Assembly: GCA_001004265.1 (NCBI GenBank)
Contig: LCQS01000004.1
Span: forward strand, 1 to 51,460
Length of the DNA stretch: 51,460 nt
From: Parcubacteria group bacterium GW2011_GWA2_51_10
GTDB lineage: Bacteria; Patescibacteriota; Minisyncoccia; Phycocordibacterales; UBA2100
Direction: 5' to 3'
The notes under the pieces are model-generated. The model was not told the DNA's origin. It saw only the letters and a program-made list of their open reading frames with translations, and did no database searches. The position numbers and the translations under genes are program-made. This document shows positions 3,414-31,303 of this stretch, one piece after another (the stretch's first letter is position 1; every line of letters starts with the position of its first letter).

Positions 3414-3749
3414 ATGAAAACACTTTTACAGTATTTAGGGATTGTCGCGGCGGTGGCGCTCACGCTTAACATCACGCCGGGGATATTCTACAGCGGCGGA
3501 TGGCCGACTATTTTCCTGATCGCACTCGCGTGGTCAGTCATTATTCTTGTCATACGCCCGATCCTTCAATTACTTACTTTGCCGATTACGATTATCACGC
3601 TCGGGCTTTTCGCACTCGTTCTGAACGCATTCCTTTTTTATGCCATGACATGGATTGTTCCCGGCTTTACTGTTGCCGGTTACTGGTCTGCGCTTCTTGG
3701 TTCGGTCATACTTTCCGTCTTTATCTGGCTCATCCAGAAAATCTTCTAG
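3414..3749 (+). CDS. Small 4-TM membrane protein, DUF360/Phage_holin_4_2 (YvlD-like) family
   Basis: The hydrophobic pattern and the GLFALVLNAFLFYAMTWIVPGF segment are typical of this family. Confidence 0.55.
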   Translation: MKTLLQYLGIVAAVALTLNITPGIFYSGGWPTIFLIALAWSVIILVIRPILQLLTLPITIITLGLFALVLNAFLFYAMTWIVPGFTVAGYWSALLGSVILSVFIWLIQKIF

Positions 3750-3827
3750 AAAGTGCAAAGAATTTTGCTGAGCGTTCTCGTGGAGCCAGCCGAGGACGGT
3801 CGAAGGCATGAAATTTGAGTATTTTTC

Positions 3828-3867
3828 TACTTGTTTATCGTGGACGACCGTCCACGATAAACAAGTA
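3828..3867. repeat. 40-nt near-perfect palindrome (19-nt arms, 2-nt centre)
   Basis: TACTTGTTTATCGTGGACG-ac-CGTCCACGATAAACAAGTA. Confidence 0.8.
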
Positions 3868-4017
3868 AACAAGGGAGTCTTTCTTGAGCCAATTTCTTTC
3901 ATGATAAGATTTCTGAAATATGCCCGCGCTGTGCTATCAGTATTGAACTACCCCATACAGAAAGTTATATAGTGTTTGGCATACGGGTTTGCTAGTATCT
4001 ATTTGCGGACGAATCAT

Positions 4018-4650
4018 ATGAATCTCGATAAACAACGGACGCCAGAGCGGCGAAATTCGCCTGAGAGAATTGCTGCTCTACTCGGAGATTTGTTAGCAAA
4101 GGATCCACAAATGCTGGCAAAGGCCATTGATTCGATATCGCCGGAGGCCCGGACGGCATTGAGCGGATTAATACAATTAGCGGAAGAAAAAAATGCGCAA
4201 CAATCTTCGGCTGAGGTTCAGCCACCAGCAAAAACAGACGCCAAGACAGAACAGGGCAAAATCGAAATTCCGGCTGATTATGAACCGAATCTCGACCAAC
4301 GGCGAAGAGAGCAGGCATTTGATGACGACAACTATTGGATTAGCGAGAACCGAAAAAATTCTTTACCGGATTATGGGAAATCACCTTTATATCGCGCACA
4401 TTGGAGATTAGGAACTCAGGAATATCGACTTAAGCTTGCAGAAGAAATACGCAGCAGATTTAAAATTGGTGAGTATTACTACATACGTGGTCGGGGAGGA
4501 CGCAACCCGATGAAACTAGTTGAAATTTTAACTGACGGAACGGCTCAGATGAAACATAGAAATGATTTAGGAAATCAACCAAAGGTTTATCTCGAGGAAT
4601 TGAAAGAACTGAATCCTGATGCTTTGCCATTATCAAAAGATTATTTGTAG
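4018..4650 (+). CDS. Hypothetical protein
   Basis: Long ORF with no recognisable motif. The track start 3976 is TTG; the first ATG is at 4018. Confidence 0.5.
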   Translation: MNLDKQRTPERRNSPERIAALLGDLLAKDPQMLAKAIDSISPEARTALSGLIQLAEEKNAQQSSAEVQPPAKTDAKTEQGKIEIPADYEPNLDQRRREQAFDDDNYWISENRKNSLPDYGKSPLYRAHWRLGTQEYRLKLAEEIRSRFKIGEYYYIRGRGGRNPMKLVEILTDGTAQMKHRNDLGNQPKVYLEELKELNPDALPLSKDYL

Positions 4651-4675: not shown

Positions 4676-5539
4676 ATGTTTGTTAGAATTCCACAAATGG
4701 AGCCGGTTTGCTATCTGAACGGAAAGATTTTACCGGTTGCCGATGCGTGTGTGAACGTGTACGACATCGGACTTTTGCGCGGCTTTGGGATTTACGAAGC
4801 ATTCATGACATACAGCCGCAAACCGTTCATGCTCGCCGATCACCTCGCGCGATTCCGACGCTCGGCCAAAGCAATGTCGCTTAAAGTTCCTGCAAGCGAC
4901 GAGGAAATTCGTTCAGCAGTCGACGCATTGGTTGAGAAAAGCATTCCGTCTTATAAAGAGGCGGTGATTCGCATTATTTTGACAGGCGGTAATGCGCTTG
5001 ACGGCATCGAATACAACTATGACACTCCCACCTTTTACATTCTTGTCGAGGAATTCAAGCCGTTTCCTAGCACATTGTACACCGACGGATGCCCCTTGAC
5101 CGTGTTCGAACAACAGAGGCAGTTCCCGGAAAGCAAGACAACGAATTACATTCAGGCGGTCCTTCTGCAGGAGGCGCGCGAGAAAGCCGGCGCAATCGAA
5201 ATTTTGTATGTGTCAAACGGAAAGGTCTTGGAAGCCGCAACGAGCAATTTTTTTATCGTGAAGAATGGCGTGCTCATTACCGCAAAGAGTGGAATTCTTG
5301 AAGGTGTTACTCGGAAAGTTACTATCGAAGTCGCGCGGCCGCACTTTTCTGTTGAAATACGGGATGTTTCAGTAGATGAGATGTACGACGCTGATGAAGC
5401 GTTCATCACGTCAAGTTTCAAAGAGATCGTCCCCATTGTGCGGGTTGGCGAGAAAACAATAGGGAGCGGGAAAGTCGGCGACGTGACGAAACGCCTCATG
5501 AAATTATTTCGCGACTATACAGTACATGTCGGTAGGTAG
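4676..5539 (+). CDS. Class IV aminotransferase (branched-chain/D-amino-acid aminotransferase family)
   Basis: Fold-type IV layout: YLNGK, GFGIYE, ESKTTNY, EATSNFFIVKNG.LIT, G.LEG.TR. Confidence 0.8.
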   Translation: MFVRIPQMEPVCYLNGKILPVADACVNVYDIGLLRGFGIYEAFMTYSRKPFMLADHLARFRRSAKAMSLKVPASDEEIRSAVDALVEKSIPSYKEAVIRIILTGGNALDGIEYNYDTPTFYILVEEFKPFPSTLYTDGCPLTVFEQQRQFPESKTTNYIQAVLLQEAREKAGAIEILYVSNGKVLEAATSNFFIVKNGVLITAKSGILEGVTRKVTIEVARPHFSVEIRDVSVDEMYDADEAFITSSFKEIVPIVRVGEKTIGSGKVGDVTKRLMKLFRDYTVHVGR

Positions 5540-5552
5540 GCCTTGATGTTGT

Positions 5553-5558
5553 TATAAT
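5553..5558 (+). promoter_or_regulatory. Extended -10 TGTTATAAT, 6 nt upstream of ATG 5565
   Basis: tgtTATAATaaatcaATG; no SD. Confidence 0.45.
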
Positions 5559-5564
5559 AAATCA

Positions 5565-6041
5565 ATGAGTCTCGATAATAAAAAACCGGTGGATCTGCGC
5601 CGCAGAGGTCTCGTGGCGGCGCTCGGAGGCGCGCTGATGGCTGGCCCAGCGCGCGGGGGAGAGAAAAGTAAATCGGAAGACGATCGTTTTTTTGAAGCCA
5701 TGGAGCGCGACATTGAAAAACAAGCTCGGTCAAATCCGGAATTTGTAAAGGAGATGTTCGTGCGGCACCGGGGTGATCTTATAGGCGATGCGACCAACGT
5801 AGAGAATTTAAAGCGAATGCTTAGGAGTTCAAAATTCCAACACGTACGGTCGCTCATTGCTGCAGACGTGATATTTCGCGAAAGGGAGATCGCATGGAAA
5901 CGCAGGTACGTAGGGTTACTGGAGAAGTATCTTCCACCCGAAGTTCCGCGCGACAAAGGACGGCGCATCACTACGCAAACTCAAGCGCCACGACCCGATT
6001 TATCGGAACTTCCCCCGGAGAAACGACAGAAGATAATGTAA
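5565..6041 (+). CDS. Hypothetical protein with a twin-arginine-like N-terminus
   Basis: DLRRRGLVAALGGALMAGPA followed by a charged region. Confidence 0.45.
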   Translation: MSLDNKKPVDLRRRGLVAALGGALMAGPARGGEKSKSEDDRFFEAMERDIEKQARSNPEFVKEMFVRHRGDLIGDATNVENLKRMLRSSKFQHVRSLIAADVIFREREIAWKRRYVGLLEKYLPPEVPRDKGRRITTQTQAPRPDLSELPPEKRQKIM

Positions 6042-6124: not shown

Positions 6125-6937
6125 TTAGATTTTCAGCAAATATGTTTCAATCAGTTTAGCGGGGCGCATAGAGTCTTTAAATGCGAGAAGTCCAGGCACT
6201 CCACAGGGGCAGCCGATCGTAAAATATGGAACACCGGGATACAGTCTCGCTTTTTCTTGATAAATAAAGGGACTTAATCCGCGATATTTAATATTAACCT
6301 TCTGCATCAAGCCGACAAAAAGATTCTCTGTCAGCGGGTGAGTGTATGCAAACCCCGCGAGCTTCCCATCCACTTCAACAAAAATATTTCTCTGCGGCAG
6401 ACTTGTAAATTCCAGATATTGCAAACAGGCATTAAGATCATCGATAAAAACGCCTTTTGCGAACTCTGAATAGTTTGTTAAGTCCTTAGTGCTCGCCCAA
6501 TTCCGAATGAATTCCGCTACGAACTCTGGCTCATATTGATTTTTTATAGTGTAAGAATAGTGATGTCTAAAATAATTTGCGTTTTGTCGAAATTTACGCA
6601 GATCAGGCGTCGCGGATTTTGATAATTTCTCGCAGTCGTAAAAATATTCAGGGCCATAGGGTATTTTCTCCTTTATAGTTATTCCATTTTCCTCAAAGGT
6701 TTTGATGTCTATCTCGCGAGCAAACTGCACTCCTCTGGCGTCTTCTTTGCCTATTTTAGACGGTGCGTACAAGAACCGCATTTCTTTATCAGAAGTATCG
6801 AGATAGTAAACGATGAGTTTACCATTCATTTGCTCGTAATAGCCGTGAGCGGCTAAAAGGAAGGGGCTCGTAAAATAAGCTTCGCGTCCTAATTCTCTCG
6901 AAATTTCCAGCGCATTATTGGGAGTAATTTTCTCCAT
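6125..6937 (-). CDS. Hypothetical protein, possibly DUF2156 (lysyl-PG synthase C-terminal-like, GNAT fold)
   Basis: LRKFRQNANYF..., the ...GFAY... core and the C-terminal GLLAFKDSMRP resemble DUF2156. Confidence 0.4.
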   Translation of the reverse strand: MEKITPNNALEISRELGREAYFTSPFLLAAHGYYEQMNGKLIVYYLDTSDKEMRFLYAPSKIGKEDARGVQFAREIDIKTFEENGITIKEKIPYGPEYFYDCEKLSKSATPDLRKFRQNANYFRHHYSYTIKNQYEPEFVAEFIRNWASTKDLTNYSEFAKGVFIDDLNACLQYLEFTSLPQRNIFVEVDGKLAGFAYTHPLTENLFVGLMQKVNIKYRGLSPFIYQEKARLYPGVPYFTIGCPCGVPGLLAFKDSMRPAKLIETYLLKI

Positions 6938-21072: not shown

Positions 21073-21948
21073 ATGTGGAACAAAACTCTTTCTTGCTGTG
21101 CAATTTTAGGGTCGCTATCTGCGCGTGCTCGCGCAGCGCTGCCTCTCGCGCCGTCGCGCTGCGAGACACCCCAAAATCGCACAGCTTCGGCGAGTTTTGT
21201 TTTTGGGAGGAGGAATAAAATACCTCGCAGCAAGCTGACGAGGTATTTTATTTTTGAGAACCGTCGGTTCTCAACGCTCGCTTCGCTCGCTGCTCTCCTC
21301 CACGGGGAACCGGATGCGGGTCCCCGACCCCCTCCGCCCTTTGCGCATTCACCCCCGAAGCAGAGCTTCGGGGAACTCTGCGCAAAGATAGGAGAAAATC
21401 GGGGTTTTACTTTGATCGAAATGATGGTTGCAACTGCGCTGTTTGCAATTGTGATGCTTGTTTCTGTGAGCACGCTTCTTGCGCTCGCGGATGCGAATCG
21501 GAAGGCGCAAGCGCTCCAATCCGTCATAAATAATCTGAATGTCTCGCTCGACGGCATGGTGCGCGCCATTCGCATCGGGAGCGATTACCATTGTGGCAGC
21601 ACGGGTGTTCTGCGCGACCCGCAGTCGTGTCCAACCGGGGGAGATACATACTTTGCATTTCAGCCATACCATGAAGGCGACGCTGCCGTGCAGCCGTGGG
21701 TGTATAAATTTGACGGCACTCAAATCCTGAAATCAGAAACAGGAGGGGAACCATTCTACGCAATCACAACGCCTGAGGTCCAAATTGATAGCGTCCGTTT
21801 TTACGTCGTTGGCACAGCGCGTGGCGCAGATAGAATTCAGCCGAAAGTCGTCATCACGATAAAGGGTACCGCAAGTGCCGGTAACGAAAGAGCGAAAACG
21901 GAATTCAACATTCAGGCAACAGCTGTGCAGAGAATACTTGATATCTAG
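21073..21948 (+). CDS. Minor pilin/pseudopilin; only the part from ~21400 is recognisable and the start is unresolved
   Basis: The prepilin motif NRG|FTLIEMMVATALFAIV is encoded at ~21397-21450. The upstream ~330 nt of the ORF consists of repeat elements. Confidence 0.55.
   Translation: MWNKTLSCCAILGSLSARARAALPLAPSRCETPQNRTASASFVFGRRNKIPRSKLTRYFIFENRRFSTLASLAALLHGEPDAGPRPPPPFAHSPPKQSFGELCAKIGENRGFTLIEMMVATALFAIVMLVSVSTLLALADANRKAQALQSVINNLNVSLDGMVRAIRIGSDYHCGSTGVLRDPQSCPTGGDTYFAFQPYHEGDAAVQPWVYKFDGTQILKSETGGEPFYAITTPEVQIDSVRFYVVGTARGADRIQPKVVITIKGTASAGNERAKTEFNIQATAVQRILDI
21115..21345 (+). repeat. Composite repeat insertion (R2-like half plus R1-like core TTTGAGAAC..GTTCTCAACGCTCGC..GCTCGCTGCTCTC.TCCAC)
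   Basis: The core matches 29311..29352 of repeat B. GCTCGCGCAGCG and the CAGCAAGCTG-loop hairpin match 659..760. Confidence 0.6.
21217..21255 (+). terminator. Intrinsic-terminator-like hairpin with a T run
   Basis: AAAATACCTCG-cagcaagctga-CGAGGTATTTTATTTTT, 150 nt after the stop at 21070. Confidence 0.55.
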
Positions 21949-27787: not shown

Positions 27788-27895
27788 TCTCAACATTGTC
27801 CGGGCGGCCCGATTTGATTTACAAATGCGGAAGCCGTGGTAAAGTCTTGCGGGTATCCGGGCTATCAAAGCTCATTTTACTGATGGAGGTTCCAA

Positions 27896-28372
27896 ATGAT
27901 TGCCAAGCTGTGGGCTGCAATCGCTACGGTAATAGCCGCGGCACTGACGGTGCTGCACTTCGATAACCCGTATCCGCTCGTTCAGGTTCCCGATCGCGGG
28001 CATCGACTGTACGCCGTTCCGGCCGCACAGCATGCGCTGGTTGTGGACATTCTGAAAAGGTCAGGGCTGAGGCCCTTCGGCACTTTCACGGCCGGGATCA
28101 GGCAGACGCTGTTTGAGGACGGCATGACGGTGATCGCATCGGGCGCGGGGGTGGAGAAGGCAGCAATCTCGCTTCCGGTCGAAAATCCTCAAAAGAAAGC
28201 TGAGGAAATGAAGAAAGTTGTCCTGGCTGAATTCGGGATCGAAACGCAGCTCTGGACACCGCCCGATCCAGAATTGAAGGACAAGCTCGTCGTGCTGAAG
28301 TCCGCAAATCTTCCGCTCGACTTCGCCTACCGCCTGCCAGGCAATAAAATGCCATGGCCGAAGTGGGAATGA
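27896..28372 (+). CDS. Hypothetical secreted/membrane-anchored protein
   Basis: GGAGG SD, a hydrophobic N-terminus, and a clear terminator downstream. Confidence 0.5.
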   Translation: MIAKLWAAIATVIAAALTVLHFDNPYPLVQVPDRGHRLYAVPAAQHALVVDILKRSGLRPFGTFTAGIRQTLFEDGMTVIASGAGVEKAAISLPVENPQKKAEEMKKVVLAEFGIETQLWTPPDPELKDKLVVLKSANLPLDFAYRLPGNKMPWPKWE

Positions 28373-28392
28373 GGCGATCGACTGCCTTGCGA

Positions 28393-28422
28393 ACACTTCG
28401 GAGAGATCCGGAGTGTTTTTTT
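28393..28422 (+). terminator. Rho-independent terminator
   Basis: ACACTtCGGA-gaga-TCCGgAGTGT followed by TTTTTTT. Confidence 0.75.
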
Positions 28423-28635
28423 GCAGCATTTTGGTGCACTCTAGGGCTGGATTGACACCCTATTGCTGGCTGGCCTGCGCTTAGCCATTTGAAGAATTAA
28501 TCATCGATTCGAGAGCTCTGATGTTTTCGCTAATTGCTTCCATGGTATATAGCATATTTTCATCAATGAGGACTGAAGTTTGATTAGGGCAAGAAACCAT
28601 ATACCCCTGAAACATCAGTGTTCTTTACTGGGGGG

Positions 28636-29178
28636 TTACCGACCAAGTAACACAAGGGCCATGACACTTAAAGCGCGACCCGGGTGCACGCATAATTGTT
28701 TGTCCATTGTACTGTCCTCGAAGAAACGAGCGATTCGATCGTTATCGCTTCCACTGTCTGTTCTAAGCTTGAGAGATTTATATTTTCCGAATTCTCGCGT
28801 AAGAAAACTCTTGATATTTTCCTCGCTTACCAAATCTCCTGGCGAAGCTTGAATATCCATTTCGGCTGTGGGTAACCCGTCATATGGATAGGAGAGTGCT
28901 TTCCTGTATTGCTCAACATTTTCCGGTTTAATATTATGGACCCTTACCGCTTCGTTAAACGCTCCTTCTTCAGTTACCGTTTTTTTGATAATAAGTCCAG
29001 GATAAGCCGTTTTCATATCATTTGTAAGACTGGCTAGTTCCTCCGCTGATGATCCTCGTTGAAATATAAAAATCAAAGGACTTTTTGCCTTATCTCTCAG
29101 CCATATGCAAGAACCACTTGCACTTATCCAGAGTATTAAAAAAATTACGCCCAGCGCCATGAAGACATTTCTCATCAT
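28636..29178 (-). CDS. Hypothetical membrane-anchored protein in an AT-richer patch
   Basis: 180-aa ORF with an N-terminal TM segment and no recognisable domain. Confidence 0.45.
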   Translation of the reverse strand: MMRNVFMALGVIFLILWISASGSCIWLRDKAKSPLIFIFQRGSSAEELASLTNDMKTAYPGLIIKKTVTEEGAFNEAVRVHNIKPENVEQYRKALSYPYDGLPTAEMDIQASPGDLVSEENIKSFLTREFGKYKSLKLRTDSGSDNDRIARFFEDSTMDKQLCVHPGRALSVMALVLLGR

Positions 29179-29267
29179 CTACATTCTATCTTATTTTCTC
29201 GACACCCGGTCGAGGACGTAACTTGTTTCTCTCAGATGCAAAACCAGTCCGGCTTTCTACTATGCGT

Positions 29268-29450
29268 GTTGCGGGGGGCTAGACTCGTCGCTGCGCTCCT
29301 CTTTGAGAACCCACAGTTCTCAACGCTCGCAAGCTCGCTGCTCTCTTCCACAGGAAACTCCCGTTTCCTGGCACTTTCCCAGTCCTTCTCCCGCAACTCG
29401 CTGAAATGCAAAAATCCTCCCAAACTGAGAGGATTCTTGCTGCGAGTTGC
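29268..29450 (+). repeat. Repeat B (family R1, tRNA-fMet 3'-flank element), plus orientation
   Basis: Starts with GTTGCGGGGGGCTAGAC. Shares TCCACAGGAAACTCCCGTTTCCTGGCACTTTCCC, CCCGCAACTCGC, AAATGCAAAAA, GAGGATTCTTGCT and GCGAGTTGC with the reverse complement of 31030..31194. Confidence 0.8.
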
Positions 29451-29525
29451 ACTGGCAGGACGGGATTGGCACCTGATTCTGGTGTGGATGCGAGATGCGG
29501 CTGCAACTAGCGCTACGCCAGACTT
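29451..29525 (-). pseudogene. Degenerate remnant resembling the 3' half of tRNA-fMet
   Basis: The minus strand reads ..CAGGTGCcaatcccGTCCTGCCagtGCAACTCGC, against CAGGTGCAAGTCCTGCCCCCGCAACTCGC in the real gene. It cannot be folded into a cloverleaf. Confidence 0.35.
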
Positions 29526-29529
29526 AGTA

Positions 29530-29562
29530 CTCGCAAAATGCAACGCCCGCGTTAGCGGGCGT
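29530..29562 (-). terminator. GC-rich hairpin downstream of the minus-strand ORF 29581..29850
   Basis: ACGCCCGC-gtta-GCGGGCGT. On the minus strand it is followed by TGCATTTTG. Confidence 0.5.
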
Positions 29563-29580
29563 GCGTAGTGGCGAACTTCA

Positions 29581-29850
29581 CTACGTCCATAGATCGGCGA
29601 GTGCTTCCGGTGTCAGATCGCTCGGCGCATGCGGGACAAGACTCCCGCCGAGCCCGATTATTGCGCGAGCCTTATTGATCGTGTCCTTCGGAATCGTTTC
29701 CGTGAATGTTCCTTTGAGTGCGGAAACGAAGTCGCCTCGGCTTTGCGCATCGAAGAACGCCTGTACAACCGGGTTGGTGCTTTTTGCGTAGAACATGTGA
29801 GGGTCCTCCTCCAGGTTTAGCAGTATGTCTTTTATTTCAAAATCGGGCAT
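29581..29850 (-). CDS. Hypothetical 89-aa protein
   Basis: ORF with a downstream hairpin and no recognisable motif. Confidence 0.4.
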   Translation of the reverse strand: MPDFEIKDILLNLEEDPHMFYAKSTNPVVQAFFDAQSRGDFVSALKGTFTETIPKDTINKARAIIGLGGSLVPHAPSDLTPEALADLWT

Positions 29851-29895
29851 GTGTCAAGGCCACCAGATTTCTGGTGCAAAATGCGTCCTATTTCT

Positions 29896-29937
29896 GTTGC
29901 GGGGGCTAGACTCGTCGCTGCGCTCCTCTTTGAGAAC
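29896..29937 (+). repeat. Repeat C: truncated copy of the first ~40 nt of repeat B
   Basis: GTTGCGGGGGCTAGACTCGTCGCTGCGCTCCTCTTTGAGAAC is almost identical to 29268..29310. Confidence 0.8.
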
Positions 29938-29962
29938 TCCCATTTCGACAGTTGGGACTACT

Positions 29963-30646
29963 TCAAGAAGCGTATCCTGCGACAGCAGAAATTGAACCGA
30001 GAATCTGTCGCCGCAGTGCTGTGGCCCTACGGACTTTAACTCGAAGTGTCCCGAAATGCGTGGTCGTGTTTGTGTACACTTTGCGAGATTGCACTTTTAT
30101 GAGGCTTGCTTGAGTAAATTGTGACGAGGATATACCTGTTACGCGAGCCCAATATCTTTCAACCACACCTATACGACTCTTATGTGCCTCATTAATTGAC
30201 ACCCTCAGGATCAAATGCTTTTTAGAAATCCCGTATGTTTCAAAGACCCATCTGATAAAGGCCCGGATAATGTCAGGATTACTATTTGTAAAGCCGCATT
30301 CCTCGTTTCCTTTTTTGTAACCCTCTCCCCAGTAGAGACCGAGTCCCAACATAAAGAAGTCGCGTTTCGTAATATTTCCGACTTCACGACGACCTCTATC
30401 TTCTGCAAGTCGCGTATCGAGAATTCTTTGAGCGCGTTTCTTTTCTGATGATATTAGCCGTCCTATTCTGCCACCTGCTTCTCTTCTTTCAGCCAACCTC
30501 CGTAATTGCGCGCTGCTCAATTGAATGTCTCTGCACCAGTAGCTCACGGTACTCTTACTTGTGTATAGATCTCTCGCAATTTCATTAATGCTCCGCCCTT
30601 TCATTCGGAGCTTACAAGCTTTGTCTCGGAGTTCGACATCTGCCAT
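29963..30646 (-). CDS. HTH domain plus single-motif LAGLIDADG-like putative homing endonuclease
   Basis: N-terminal GRSINEIARDLYTSKSTVSYW (HTH). FFMLGLGLYWGEGYK then FTNSNPDIIRAFIRWV resembles the LAGLIDADG helix and following strands. Confidence 0.5.
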   Translation of the reverse strand: MADVELRDKACKLRMKGRSINEIARDLYTSKSTVSYWCRDIQLSSAQLRRLAERREAGGRIGRLISSEKKRAQRILDTRLAEDRGRREVGNITKRDFFMLGLGLYWGEGYKKGNEECGFTNSNPDIIRAFIRWVFETYGISKKHLILRVSINEAHKSRIGVVERYWARVTGISSSQFTQASLIKVQSRKVYTNTTTHFGTLRVKVRRATALRRQILGSISAVAGYAS

Positions 30647-30730
30647 CCGACCAGCATATCATAAGGTAGCTACATACATTATCGGTTGTGCAGTACTTGT
30701 GTGAATATATCGAACATGTATAGTAATAAA

Positions 30731-31029
30731 AGCGGGGTGGAGCAGTAGTAGCTCGCAAGGCTCAAATGGGCTCATTCAGCAGTAATGCTGGATGGAACAT
30801 CTGTCAAAGTCGGTGAAATCTTATTCGCAGTGCGAAGTGACAATACCGAGCCAAGTCCAGAGAGTAATCGAAGGAAAGGTGTAGAGACTAGACGGCAGAT
30901 TCCCGAACGTAAAGTCGAGGGAAAAGGTATAGTCCAGACCACAAATCTTATCCATTGGGATGAGAGCGATGAAAATCGTAGATGGAATGCATAACCTTGA
31001 GGTCGCAGGTGCAAGTCCTGCCCCCGCAA
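30731..31029 (+). tRNA. Initiator-type tRNA-Met (anticodon CAT) interrupted by a group I intron
   Basis: Exons 30731..30762 and 30990..31029 join to AGCGGGGTGGAGCAGTAGTAGCTCGCAAGGCT|CATAACCTTGAGGTCGCAGGTGCAAGTCCTGCCCCCGCAA. This is collinear with canonical bacterial tRNA-fMet. Confidence 0.8.
30763..30989 (+). ncRNA. Group I intron (IC3-like tRNA intron), no internal ORF
   Basis: P1 GCUC/GGGC with a U.G at the splice site; terminal G at 30989. GNRA hairpins CAGCA-GUAA-UGCUG and GCGAU-GAAA-AUCGU. Core strings GUCAAAGUCGGUGAAA, CCGAGCCAAGUCC, GGUGUAGAGACUAGACGGCAG and AAGGUAUAGUCC. Confidence 0.8.
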
Positions 31030-31194
31030 CTCGCAAGCAAGAATCCTCCGCAAGGAGGGTTTTTGCATTTGAATTTTGCGAGTTGCGGGGGCAGGGCCGG
31101 GAAAGTGTCAGGAAACGGGAGTTTCCTGTGGAGGAAGGCAGGGCGAAGCCCGCTGGAAAACCGTGGGTTTCCAGAATGTCTAGTCCCCCGCAAC
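31030..31194 (-). repeat. Repeat D (family R1), inverted relative to B, abutting the tRNA 3' end
   Basis: See repeat B. It ends with a second direct copy of CCCCCGCAAC (31185-31194; first copy 31021-31030). An inverted copy GTTGCGGGGG lies at 31082-31091. Confidence 0.8.
31045..31064 (+). terminator. Rho-independent terminator after tRNA-fMet
   Basis: CCTCC-gcaa-GGAGG followed by GTTTTT. Confidence 0.7.
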
Positions 31195-31303
31195 AAAAAA
31201 ACTGATAGGAACTTCCATACCATTTTTGGTATGGAGGAAGGGCTTCGAAAGGGGTCGAAAAAGATTTATTTTTAGAGACGCATACCGATAATCCCTGGAT
31301 TTT

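Follow-up and report, generated by a model that had tools for sequence, protein, structure and literature searches.

The stretch of DNA studied here (the window) comprises 51,460 nucleotides (nt) of contig LCQS01000004.1 of Parcubacteria group bacterium GW2011_GWA2_51_10. It contains a tRNA-fMet gene interrupted by a group I intron and, divergent from it, a gene for a protein of 227 amino acids (aa) with an N-terminal helix-turn-helix (HTH) domain. These genes and an open reading frame (ORF) of 89 aa lie among three copies (B, C and D) of a repeat that we call R1 (Table 1). R1 copies are gene-less, strongly structured cassettes of approximately 110-185 nt which are located immediately 3' of tRNA genes.

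An earlier interpretation of this DNA, made without database searches (the sequence-only reading), had described B and D as inverted copies and C as a truncated third copy almost identical to the first 40 nt of B. Both statements were borne out. The repeat scan and a gapped alignment identified B (-) and D (+) as inverted copies, whose longest ungapped arm (29338-29401 versus 31078-31141) measures 64 nt and shows 88% complementarity. The gapped alignment spans all of D. Overall, B and D agree in 133 of 190 columns (70%), with an identity of 77% proximally and of 61% distally. The 24-mer CAGGAAACGGGAGTTTCCTGTGGA is common to both copies and is found nowhere else in the window; 100 shuffles gave an expectation of 0. 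Within C, the positions 29901-29946 constitute a direct copy of the end of B (46 nt, 93% identity) at a spacing of 627 nt. C, whose distance to the stop codon of the 227-aa ORF is about 13 nt, is 95% identical over 43 nt to a copy in another genome (L014) and is best read as a solo R1 end.

The boundaries of the repeats coincide with the sequence of the tRNA 3' end. On the plus strand, B and C both begin with GTTGCGGGGG, while D abuts the tRNA gene and ends with the reverse complement CCCCCGCAAC, so that a second direct copy of this decamer is located 164 nt past the tRNA's own copy. D also harbors a perfect 20-nt inverted repeat (31017-31036 versus 31076-31095), made up of the tRNA 3' end and six trailer bases, and an intrinsic terminator sits in the loop between its arms. 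The suggestion that D is bounded by an att-type (attachment site-like) duplication of the tRNA 3' end is supported, and the same pattern recurs at other tRNAs and in relatives.

Upstream of B, the homology to D runs on into a degenerate tRNA T-arm and acceptor 3' strand. A complete tRNA pseudogene at this position was considered and rejected, the stretch upstream of the T-arm-like part being no more tRNA-like than shuffled sequences (576 of 2000 scored as well). The distal half of B revealed 71-73% identity to the copies of the loci L013, L014 and L018, compared to 61% to D. This half is thus closer to copies of other genomes than to D. B is best read as a second, older member of R1 on a decayed tRNA-fMet 3' fragment and not as a recent copy of D. 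D, for its part, would be an R1 cassette in place in the intron-bearing tRNA-fMet gene, an assignment that shares the moderate confidence of the overall explanation given below.

Table 1. Positions of the repeats, cassettes and genes in the window and in related loci. X, tRNA 3' end; antiX, inverted copy of the tRNA 3' end; X', distal direct copy.
Locus	Feature	Position	Strand	Remarks
Window	X, tRNA 3' end CCCCCGCAAC, direct repeat copy 1	31021-31030	+	
Window	R1 copy D, 164 nt	31031-31194	+	covariance-model score 124 bits; RNA fold z = -7.7
Window	D, trailer and intrinsic terminator	31031-31075	+	terminator itself 31045-31070
Window	D, antiX (inverted tRNA 3' end and trailer)	31076-31095	+	20-nt perfect inverted repeat
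Window	D, three-hairpin body	31096-31184	+	
Window	D, X' (CCCCCGCAAC)	31185-31194	+	10-nt direct repeat, spacing 164 nt; AAAAAAAC then starts at 31195
Window	R1 copy B	29268-29445	-	covariance-model score 139 bits; alignment to D
Window	Parts of B	X' 29268-29278, then body; antiX ~29380-29401; trailer and terminator-like hairpin up to 29445	-	
Window	Degenerate T-arm and acceptor 3' strand of tRNA-fMet (AGGTGCCAATCCCGTCCTGCCAGTGCAAC), adjoining B upstream	29446-29475	-	alignment
Window	C, solo distal R1 fragment (hairpin 3 3' strand, tail, X')	29896-29950	-	covariance-model score 20 bits
Window	R1 copy E, diverged, full-length	body 21216-21354, long proximal hairpin to ~21400	-	covariance-model score 50 bits, E = 2e-10
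Window	Extra block, absent from relatives with HTH gene	27788-29962		synteny in L003, L004, L006, L008, L019, L025, L027, L029
Window	89-aa ORF between C and B, orphan	29581-29850	-	sole match is itself
Window	227-aa protein, N-terminal HTH and conserved C-terminal domain of unknown fold class	29963-30646	-	
Window	tRNA-Met(CAT), initiator-like (1:72 mismatch), CCA not encoded	30731-31030	+	
Window	Exon 1; group I intron; exon 2	30731-30762; 30763-30989; 30990-31030	+	intronless orthologue L013 1005-1077
L010	tRNA-Arg(tct) before R1 body			TCCAACCGGGGGCA repeated at far end; 14 nt exact, ~24 nt with 2 mismatches
L018	tRNA-Gln(ttg) before R1 body			duplicated end TGTCCCCCAGC, 11 nt
L013	Intronless tRNA-fMet before R1 body, directly after 236-aa homologue			GCAACACGAAG, 11 nt exact, 15/16 overall
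L017	Degenerate tRNA-Gln 3' fragment before R1 body			contig ends within element
L014	Contig ends at proximal ..GCAAC of R1 element			B orientation
L022	Repeat with terminator and antiX; Fic gene; tRNA-fMet	4712-4790; 4901-5956; 6201-6273	-; +; -	

The cassettes and their tRNA sites

Relatives of R1 were found by scanning metagenome contigs for a 20-nt core, which yielded nine loci with five true relatives; L015 and other 20-mer matches (L009, L011, L012, L016) were rejected as chance matches. The hosts belong to a clade of Patescibacteria, homologues being named at source as Kaiserbacteria, Paceibacterota and Parcubacteria. Complete copies share one order of parts: the tRNA 3' end (X), a cassette-borne trailer, an inverted copy of the tRNA end (antiX, often with a few trailer bases), a body of three hairpins, the direct copy X' and finally a trailer like that of uninterrupted sites. 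In the fMet copies, the cassette-borne trailer contains an intrinsic terminator. The antiX element is present in the proximal part of every complete R1 copy and comprises 11-20 nt of the adjacent tRNA 3' region, whereas the conserved body starts with GGGAAGG, ends near GTCT and has no inverted termini. Inserts flanked by att-like direct repeats were thus found for D (10 nt), the Arg copy L010 (14 nt), the Gln copy L018 (11 nt) and the fMet copy L013 (11 nt).

A covariance model of R1 was built from six copies. On the alignment fitted to this model, 96% of the cells were paired and 12 pairs were changed on both sides, compared to 3.2 in shuffles, and slid controls were all far lower. This conservation of pairing is supportive but not decisive, since the alignment is small and fitted to the model. 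Strong folding was predicted for D (Table 1), for L013 (z = -6.7) and for the diverged copy E located elsewhere in the window (z = -8.7). R1 does not match any family of Rfam 15: the group I intron is the sole feature to pass between 29200 and 31300, and over B and D nothing credible was detected even at E values up to 10. The viral contigs scanned did not contain the 20-mer core. The literature searched did not describe small structured cassettes that carry such a three-part target signature at tRNA 3' ends of the Candidate Phyla Radiation (CPR).

Comparison of the tRNA-fMet site among relatives revealed several states. L006 and L027 possess an empty 3' flank with a plain terminator, R1 is present in the window and in L013, and a second type of cassette (R2) occupies the site in L003, L004, L008, L025 and L029. 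Direct repeats of 16-20 nt flank R2 in four of these five loci; in L004, X' is degenerate (about 10/14) and no exact repeat of at least 9 nt exists. In L008, a complete unit precedes the beginning of another one, and in L030 two perfect tandem units of 86 nt (R3), each ending with GCAAC, follow the tRNA-fMet gene. A small GIY-YIG nuclease ORF adjoins these tandem units; the features concerned lie at 2178-2432 and about 2450-2625 of L030 (both -). The trailer after X' (AAAA...) is like the trailer of the empty site in L006. Hence, one and the same site exists in filled and empty versions, as is expected for a tRNA-targeting element, and the pattern of filled, empty and tandem sites fits the repeated integration at the tRNA 3' end that had been proposed before. 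R2 has the same layout as R1, and 30 of its 65 predicted pairs show compensatory changes. Detectable homology between R1 and R2 was nevertheless rejected: the R1 model misses the R2 copies, and what they share is the architecture and a GGGAA..G.CAGG-like stretch only.

Both antiX and X' track local variants of the tRNA sequence. In L025, where the tRNA ends with GCTAC, antiX reads GTAGC and contains GTAGCGGGGG, and X' reads GCTAC. The T-loop GCAAATCCC of L029 is mirrored by GGGATTTGCA, the T-loop GCAATTCC of L003, L004 and L008 by the conserved R2 motif GGAATTGCA. Among the compared loci, 11 of 27 tRNA genes repeat at least 10 nt of their own 3' end 70-420 nt downstream; the chance expectation is estimated at about 0.0075 per gene. 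The window's six other tRNAs all lack a 3'-end repeat of this length within this distance. An orthologous empty tRNA-Gln site was also considered, but L018 has no flanking genes in common with the tRNA-Gln of the window and the candidate was discarded.

Relics on degenerate tRNA 3' fragments recur as well; besides B they were found in L017 and L022. In L022, a larger insert of 1.45 kb with a Fic-domain gene and without an integrase gene is located between an intronless tRNA-fMet gene and a 16-nt repeat of the tRNA 3' end. Another insert of about 95 nt follows the tRNA-Val(tac) gene of L010 (289-403, -), which is convergent with tRNA-Arg. Its body is unrelated to R1, and it is bounded by an imperfect repeat (about 27-40 nt) of the tRNA-Val 3' end plus trailer.

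Gene order around B and D

The sequence-only reading took B and D for the borders of a two-gene cassette, a candidate for a mobile or invertible module. The comparison with relatives does not support this. In L004, L006, L008, L019, L025, L027 and L029, the gene order is ligA, gatC, gatA, a gene for a 236-aa homologue, the HTH gene (convergent with the former) and tRNA-fMet (divergent from the HTH gene). The same HTH-tRNA pair is present in L003, whose contig ends before gatA/ligA. In these relatives the 236-aa and HTH genes abut or overlap, with nothing in between, and a B-like copy is absent. Because relatives lacking B keep the HTH gene and the tRNA in place, with the same order and orientation, these two are the conserved part of the locus and not a cassette. 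In the comparison with relatives, which had been suggested earlier as a check, the HTH/tRNA segment is thus syntenic, and B, the 89-aa ORF and C are missing. They belong to a 2.2-kb block of the window that additionally contains a 158-aa ORF (+) and a 180-aa ORF (-). For the 89-aa ORF no homologue other than itself was found in 5.8 billion proteins, and its coding status appears doubtful; the 180-aa ORF has 10 homologues only. Pfam and PHROGs contained no family that would identify either ORF as cargo of a mobile element.

It is therefore very improbable that the 89-aa ORF, the HTH gene and the intron-bearing tRNA are carried by a mobile or invertible module with B and D as its inverted ends. 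The segment is indeed flanked by inverted repeats (the 64-nt arms mentioned above, including a near-perfect block of 34 nt), and inversions did occur in evolution, since the orientation of tRNA-fMet relative to its conserved neighbors varies by lineage, being (-) in L022 and (+) in L013, L020 and the window, and since the R1 copy of L014 has the orientation of B. On the other hand, the HTH gene and the tRNA retain the ancestral order and orientation of relatives without B. B and D share only some 70% identity and fall into different subgroups, and the 89-aa ORF lacks homologues. The ORFs tested did not include a recombinase, and the segment has no recombinase or invertase gene next to it. A second orientation was not detected in the contigs compared. 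The contig of the window was assembled independently from Rifle groundwater samples; five contigs carry the HTH protein, of which two are displayed in the same gene order and three more are grouped as similar places. Nothing shows that the region between 29.5 and 31.0 kb moves or flips as a unit today. Because of the B-orientation copies in L014 (5 nt after the stop codon of the 236-aa gene) and L022 (a relic) and the inverted tRNA of L022, the locus is thus a hot spot of rearrangement over evolutionary time. The inverted orientation of B and D is best read as a by-product of such rearrangements and not as the boundary of a functional unit.

Origin of the cassettes

Elements integrating in tRNA genes, such as tycheposons, become flanked by partial tRNAs; newer insertions displace older ones outward, and the copies can mediate inversions (bioRxiv 10.1101/2020.12.28.424599). 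The anatomy of R1, R2 and R3 matches this rule, and therefore we regard them, with moderate confidence, as integrative cassettes that are gene-less and non-autonomous and are flanked by att-like duplications of the tRNA 3' end. The anatomy itself, its recurrence behind different tRNAs, the filled, empty and tandem sites, the tracking of the local tRNA and the compensatory changes in the hairpins are directly visible, whereas recombination, its enzyme and any free form would have to be postulated from these sequences. The cassettes would enter by site-specific recombination at the tRNA 3' end, with a recombinase encoded elsewhere supplying the activity. Each cassette would bring its own copy of the target (attP-like), so that insertion rebuilds the tRNA end and supplies a new terminator, while the displaced copy becomes X'. 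Successive insertions would give tandem arrays.

Several results weigh against this explanation. No recombinase, integrase or transposase was found in the approximately 37 ORFs of the window that were scanned (all except the last four at 46.2-50.6 kb), which encode ordinary chromosomal functions such as RecG, type IV pilus proteins, LigA, GatCA, ArgG/ArgH, PrfB, FtsEX, PyrG and GuaB. The cassettes themselves do not contain any ORF and hence no recombinase. In 185,579 species genomes, which do not include the source genome, the 20-mer core gave a single, unrelated match in Melainabacteria. A classical sequence-specific integrase would not be expected to leave one body family at three different tRNAs with an antiX that matches each of them, and we know of no established role for an internal inverted target copy in tRNA-targeting integrative elements. 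Finally, copy E is not adjacent to a tRNA and lacks a clear direct repeat.

It is conceivable that R1 and R2 serve primarily to encode a structured non-coding RNA derived from the 3' trailer of the tRNA, an explanation to which we assign a minor though appreciable chance. Pairing of antiX with X', which is possible in every complete copy, would then form a closing helix imitating the stacked acceptor and T-arm of the tRNA upstream, and RNase P, RNase Z and the CCA-adding enzyme could release a stable RNA of about 110-150 nt. The copies would multiply by local duplication, and the att-like repeat would be the 3' strand of the closing helix, which is compatible with mobility. Compensatory changes in all hairpins and the very low folding energies of D, E and L013 agree with such an RNA, as does the antiX of R2, which is split around a hairpin into anti-acceptor and anti-T-loop parts giving a tRNA-like junction. 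Moreover, the stem formed by the flank of E and antiX includes four G-U pairs and works only as RNA on that strand. However, in the fMet copies the intrinsic terminator is placed between the tRNA and antiX, so that most transcripts should stop earlier. A -35/-10 pair upstream of the antiX of D was not seen by eye, no promoter scan having been made, and Rfam does not contain a matching family. The empty sites in L006 and L027 and the exchange of R1, R2 and R3 at one site speak against an essential RNA, and E lacks a tRNA-like closing helix.

Deletion of larger tRNA-integrated elements (prophages, genomic islands), of which the joined attL and attR arms were left as scars, would also account for the directly repeated tRNA end. 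Such sites are known to collect partial tRNAs and degraded elements (bioRxiv 10.1101/2020.12.28.424599), and the Fic-bearing insert of L022 exhibits the same signature at a larger size. Independent deletions, though, would not leave the same body of about 110 nt with conserved and compensated hairpins at three tRNAs in several genomes, nor five R2 copies of one architecture, and none of the copies contains or adjoins an integrase fragment. This origin is therefore improbable.

As in tRNA-targeting islands and tycheposons, the insert has the intact tRNA on one side and a directly repeated 3' portion of it on the other, the tRNA end is restored, units accrete in tandem, and older partial tRNAs lie nearby and promote rearrangement. 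Gene-less derivatives of tRNA-targeting integrative elements exist in the form of cis-mobilizable elements (CIMEs). Unlike the islands, however, the inserts measure only 86-190 nt, carry no genes and have no integrase in reach; one body family is found at three tRNAs, and each copy contains an internal inverted target and a covarying hairpin body. With miniature inverted-repeat transposable elements (MITEs) and the Correia/NEMIS, ERIC, RUP and REP/REPIN families, the cassettes have in common that they are small, non-coding, rich in hairpins, intergenic and present in multiple copies, and that they can supply terminators. What separates them from MITEs is the lack of terminal inverted repeats common to all copies, as the antiX/X' termini change with the tRNA target. 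Likewise, the flanking duplication is variable (10 to about 24 nt), may reach into the trailer and is not a short target-site duplication of fixed length. We know of no parent insertion sequence (IS) for them.

The order X-loop-antiX-cargo-X' resembles the outcome that integration of a folded single strand would leave, as described for attC sites of integrons and for the CTX-phi attP with XerCD, and units with a common short boundary sequence may be compared to integron arrays. By inspection, though, the attC consensus RYYYAAC/GTTRRRY is not present; CCGCAAC/GTTGCGG fits only at AAC/GTT, and the Arg and Gln copies do not have AAC at the boundary. Neither IntI nor a dif-like site was seen, and the cassette hairpin varies with the target instead of being a fixed recognition site. 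IS200/IS605 elements (HUH/Y1 TnpA) and their palindromic derivatives insert 3' of a target that is base-paired with a guide beside a subterminal hairpin. This is strand-specific and hairpin-dependent, and the target sequence can recur at the right end. A fragment of such a transposase (Y1_Tnp, IS200-type HUH, 83 aa) is located in L029 (1499-1750, -) about 0.85 kb downstream of the R2 cassette and is the sole recombinase candidate nearby. On the other hand, the guides of these elements comprise 4-5 nt and not 13-25 nt as here, their hairpins are conserved within a family, and the window contains no TnpA gene.

The hairpin of X and antiX includes cassette-borne trailer bases and would thus be complete only in a free form carrying X. 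Together with the order of the parts, this may be a clue to the role of antiX. R1, R2 and R3 could even be an undescribed retargetable mini-element, in which antiX acts as a hairpin attachment site with the element's own X, formed in a single-stranded or cruciform free state, or as a base-pairing guide, inserting at matching tRNA 3' ends and then encoding an RNA capped by a mimic of acceptor and T-arm. We consider this elaborate version rather unlikely; if true, it would be a gene-less integrative cassette system of CPR bacteria specified by structure.

The genomes of Patescibacteria (CPR) are tiny, and to our knowledge few mobile elements have been described from this group. If the family inserts as we read it, CPR genomes would owe part of their plasticity to a new source, namely gene-less tRNA cassettes that rebuild the tRNA end, carry a terminator, pile up in tandem and give rise to rearrangements. 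The X/antiX/X' signature following the local tRNA is unusual and could point to a choice of sites guided by structure or base pairing, which would matter for understanding mechanisms of recombination. The finding is of more interest as a cassette family than as a local module, and inverted copies should not be taken as the borders of functional modules. In practice, such repeats would account for broken contigs and locally wrong orientation near tRNA genes in assembled CPR genomes. The contig of L014 stops exactly at the proximal ..GCAAC of R1 (5640-5643), and assemblies are probably broken by these repeats at tRNA genes.

Neighboring genes and copy E

The intron in the anticodon loop of tRNA-fMet was identified as a group I intron by a match to RF00028 (30693-30959, 57 bits versus a gathering score of 50) and by the intronless alleles in L013 and L022. 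The HTH gene is linked to this intron often but not always: both are present in the window, L003, L004, L006, L008, L025, L027 and L029, L020 (4770-5068) has the intron without the HTH gene, and L013 (1005-1077) and L022 (6201-6273) have neither.

The 227-aa protein belongs to a family that is widespread in Patescibacteria and mostly encoded divergently from tRNA-fMet. It has 733 homologues at 50-61% identity, all from Patescibacteria wherever the source is named. HTH_38 was matched in 23 of 25 members. The only signal of HTH_7 (resolvase HTH) was sub-threshold, and the protein bearing it has no recombinase domain. The designation as LAGLIDADG-like, given to the ORF in the sequence-only reading, was not confirmed by Pfam (no LAGLIDADG match among the 25 members), by a sequence search of the PDB (no match) or by Foldseek, which gave no significant match in the PDB for models of the whole protein and of its C-terminal domain alone. 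The latter model had a predicted local distance difference test (pLDDT) of 88 and a predicted template modeling score (pTM) of 0.81. The sole resemblance to LAGLIDADG is the motif GLGLYWGEGYK. This block and many other residues, including W37, C38 and R39, are invariant in the family of more than 700 members. In L006, a 232-aa ORF (3471-4169, -) with a weak LAGLIDADG_3 match lies between tRNA-Met and tRNA-Asp, downstream of the empty tRNA-fMet site.

Copy E lies, in antisense orientation, within the spacer that precedes a type IV pilin-like gene. In its first hairpin, CAGGAAAC/GTTTCCTG of the other copies are replaced by CGGGGACC/GGTTCCCCG with the pairing kept. In the open frame of the pilin-like gene (21073-21948, +), residues 109-130 form the N-methylation motif, and a canonical start codon was not seen just upstream of this motif. 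E and its long hairpin (21216-21400, -) occupy exactly the stretch upstream of the motif, and the insertion of E may have altered the start or the expression of the pilin-like gene.

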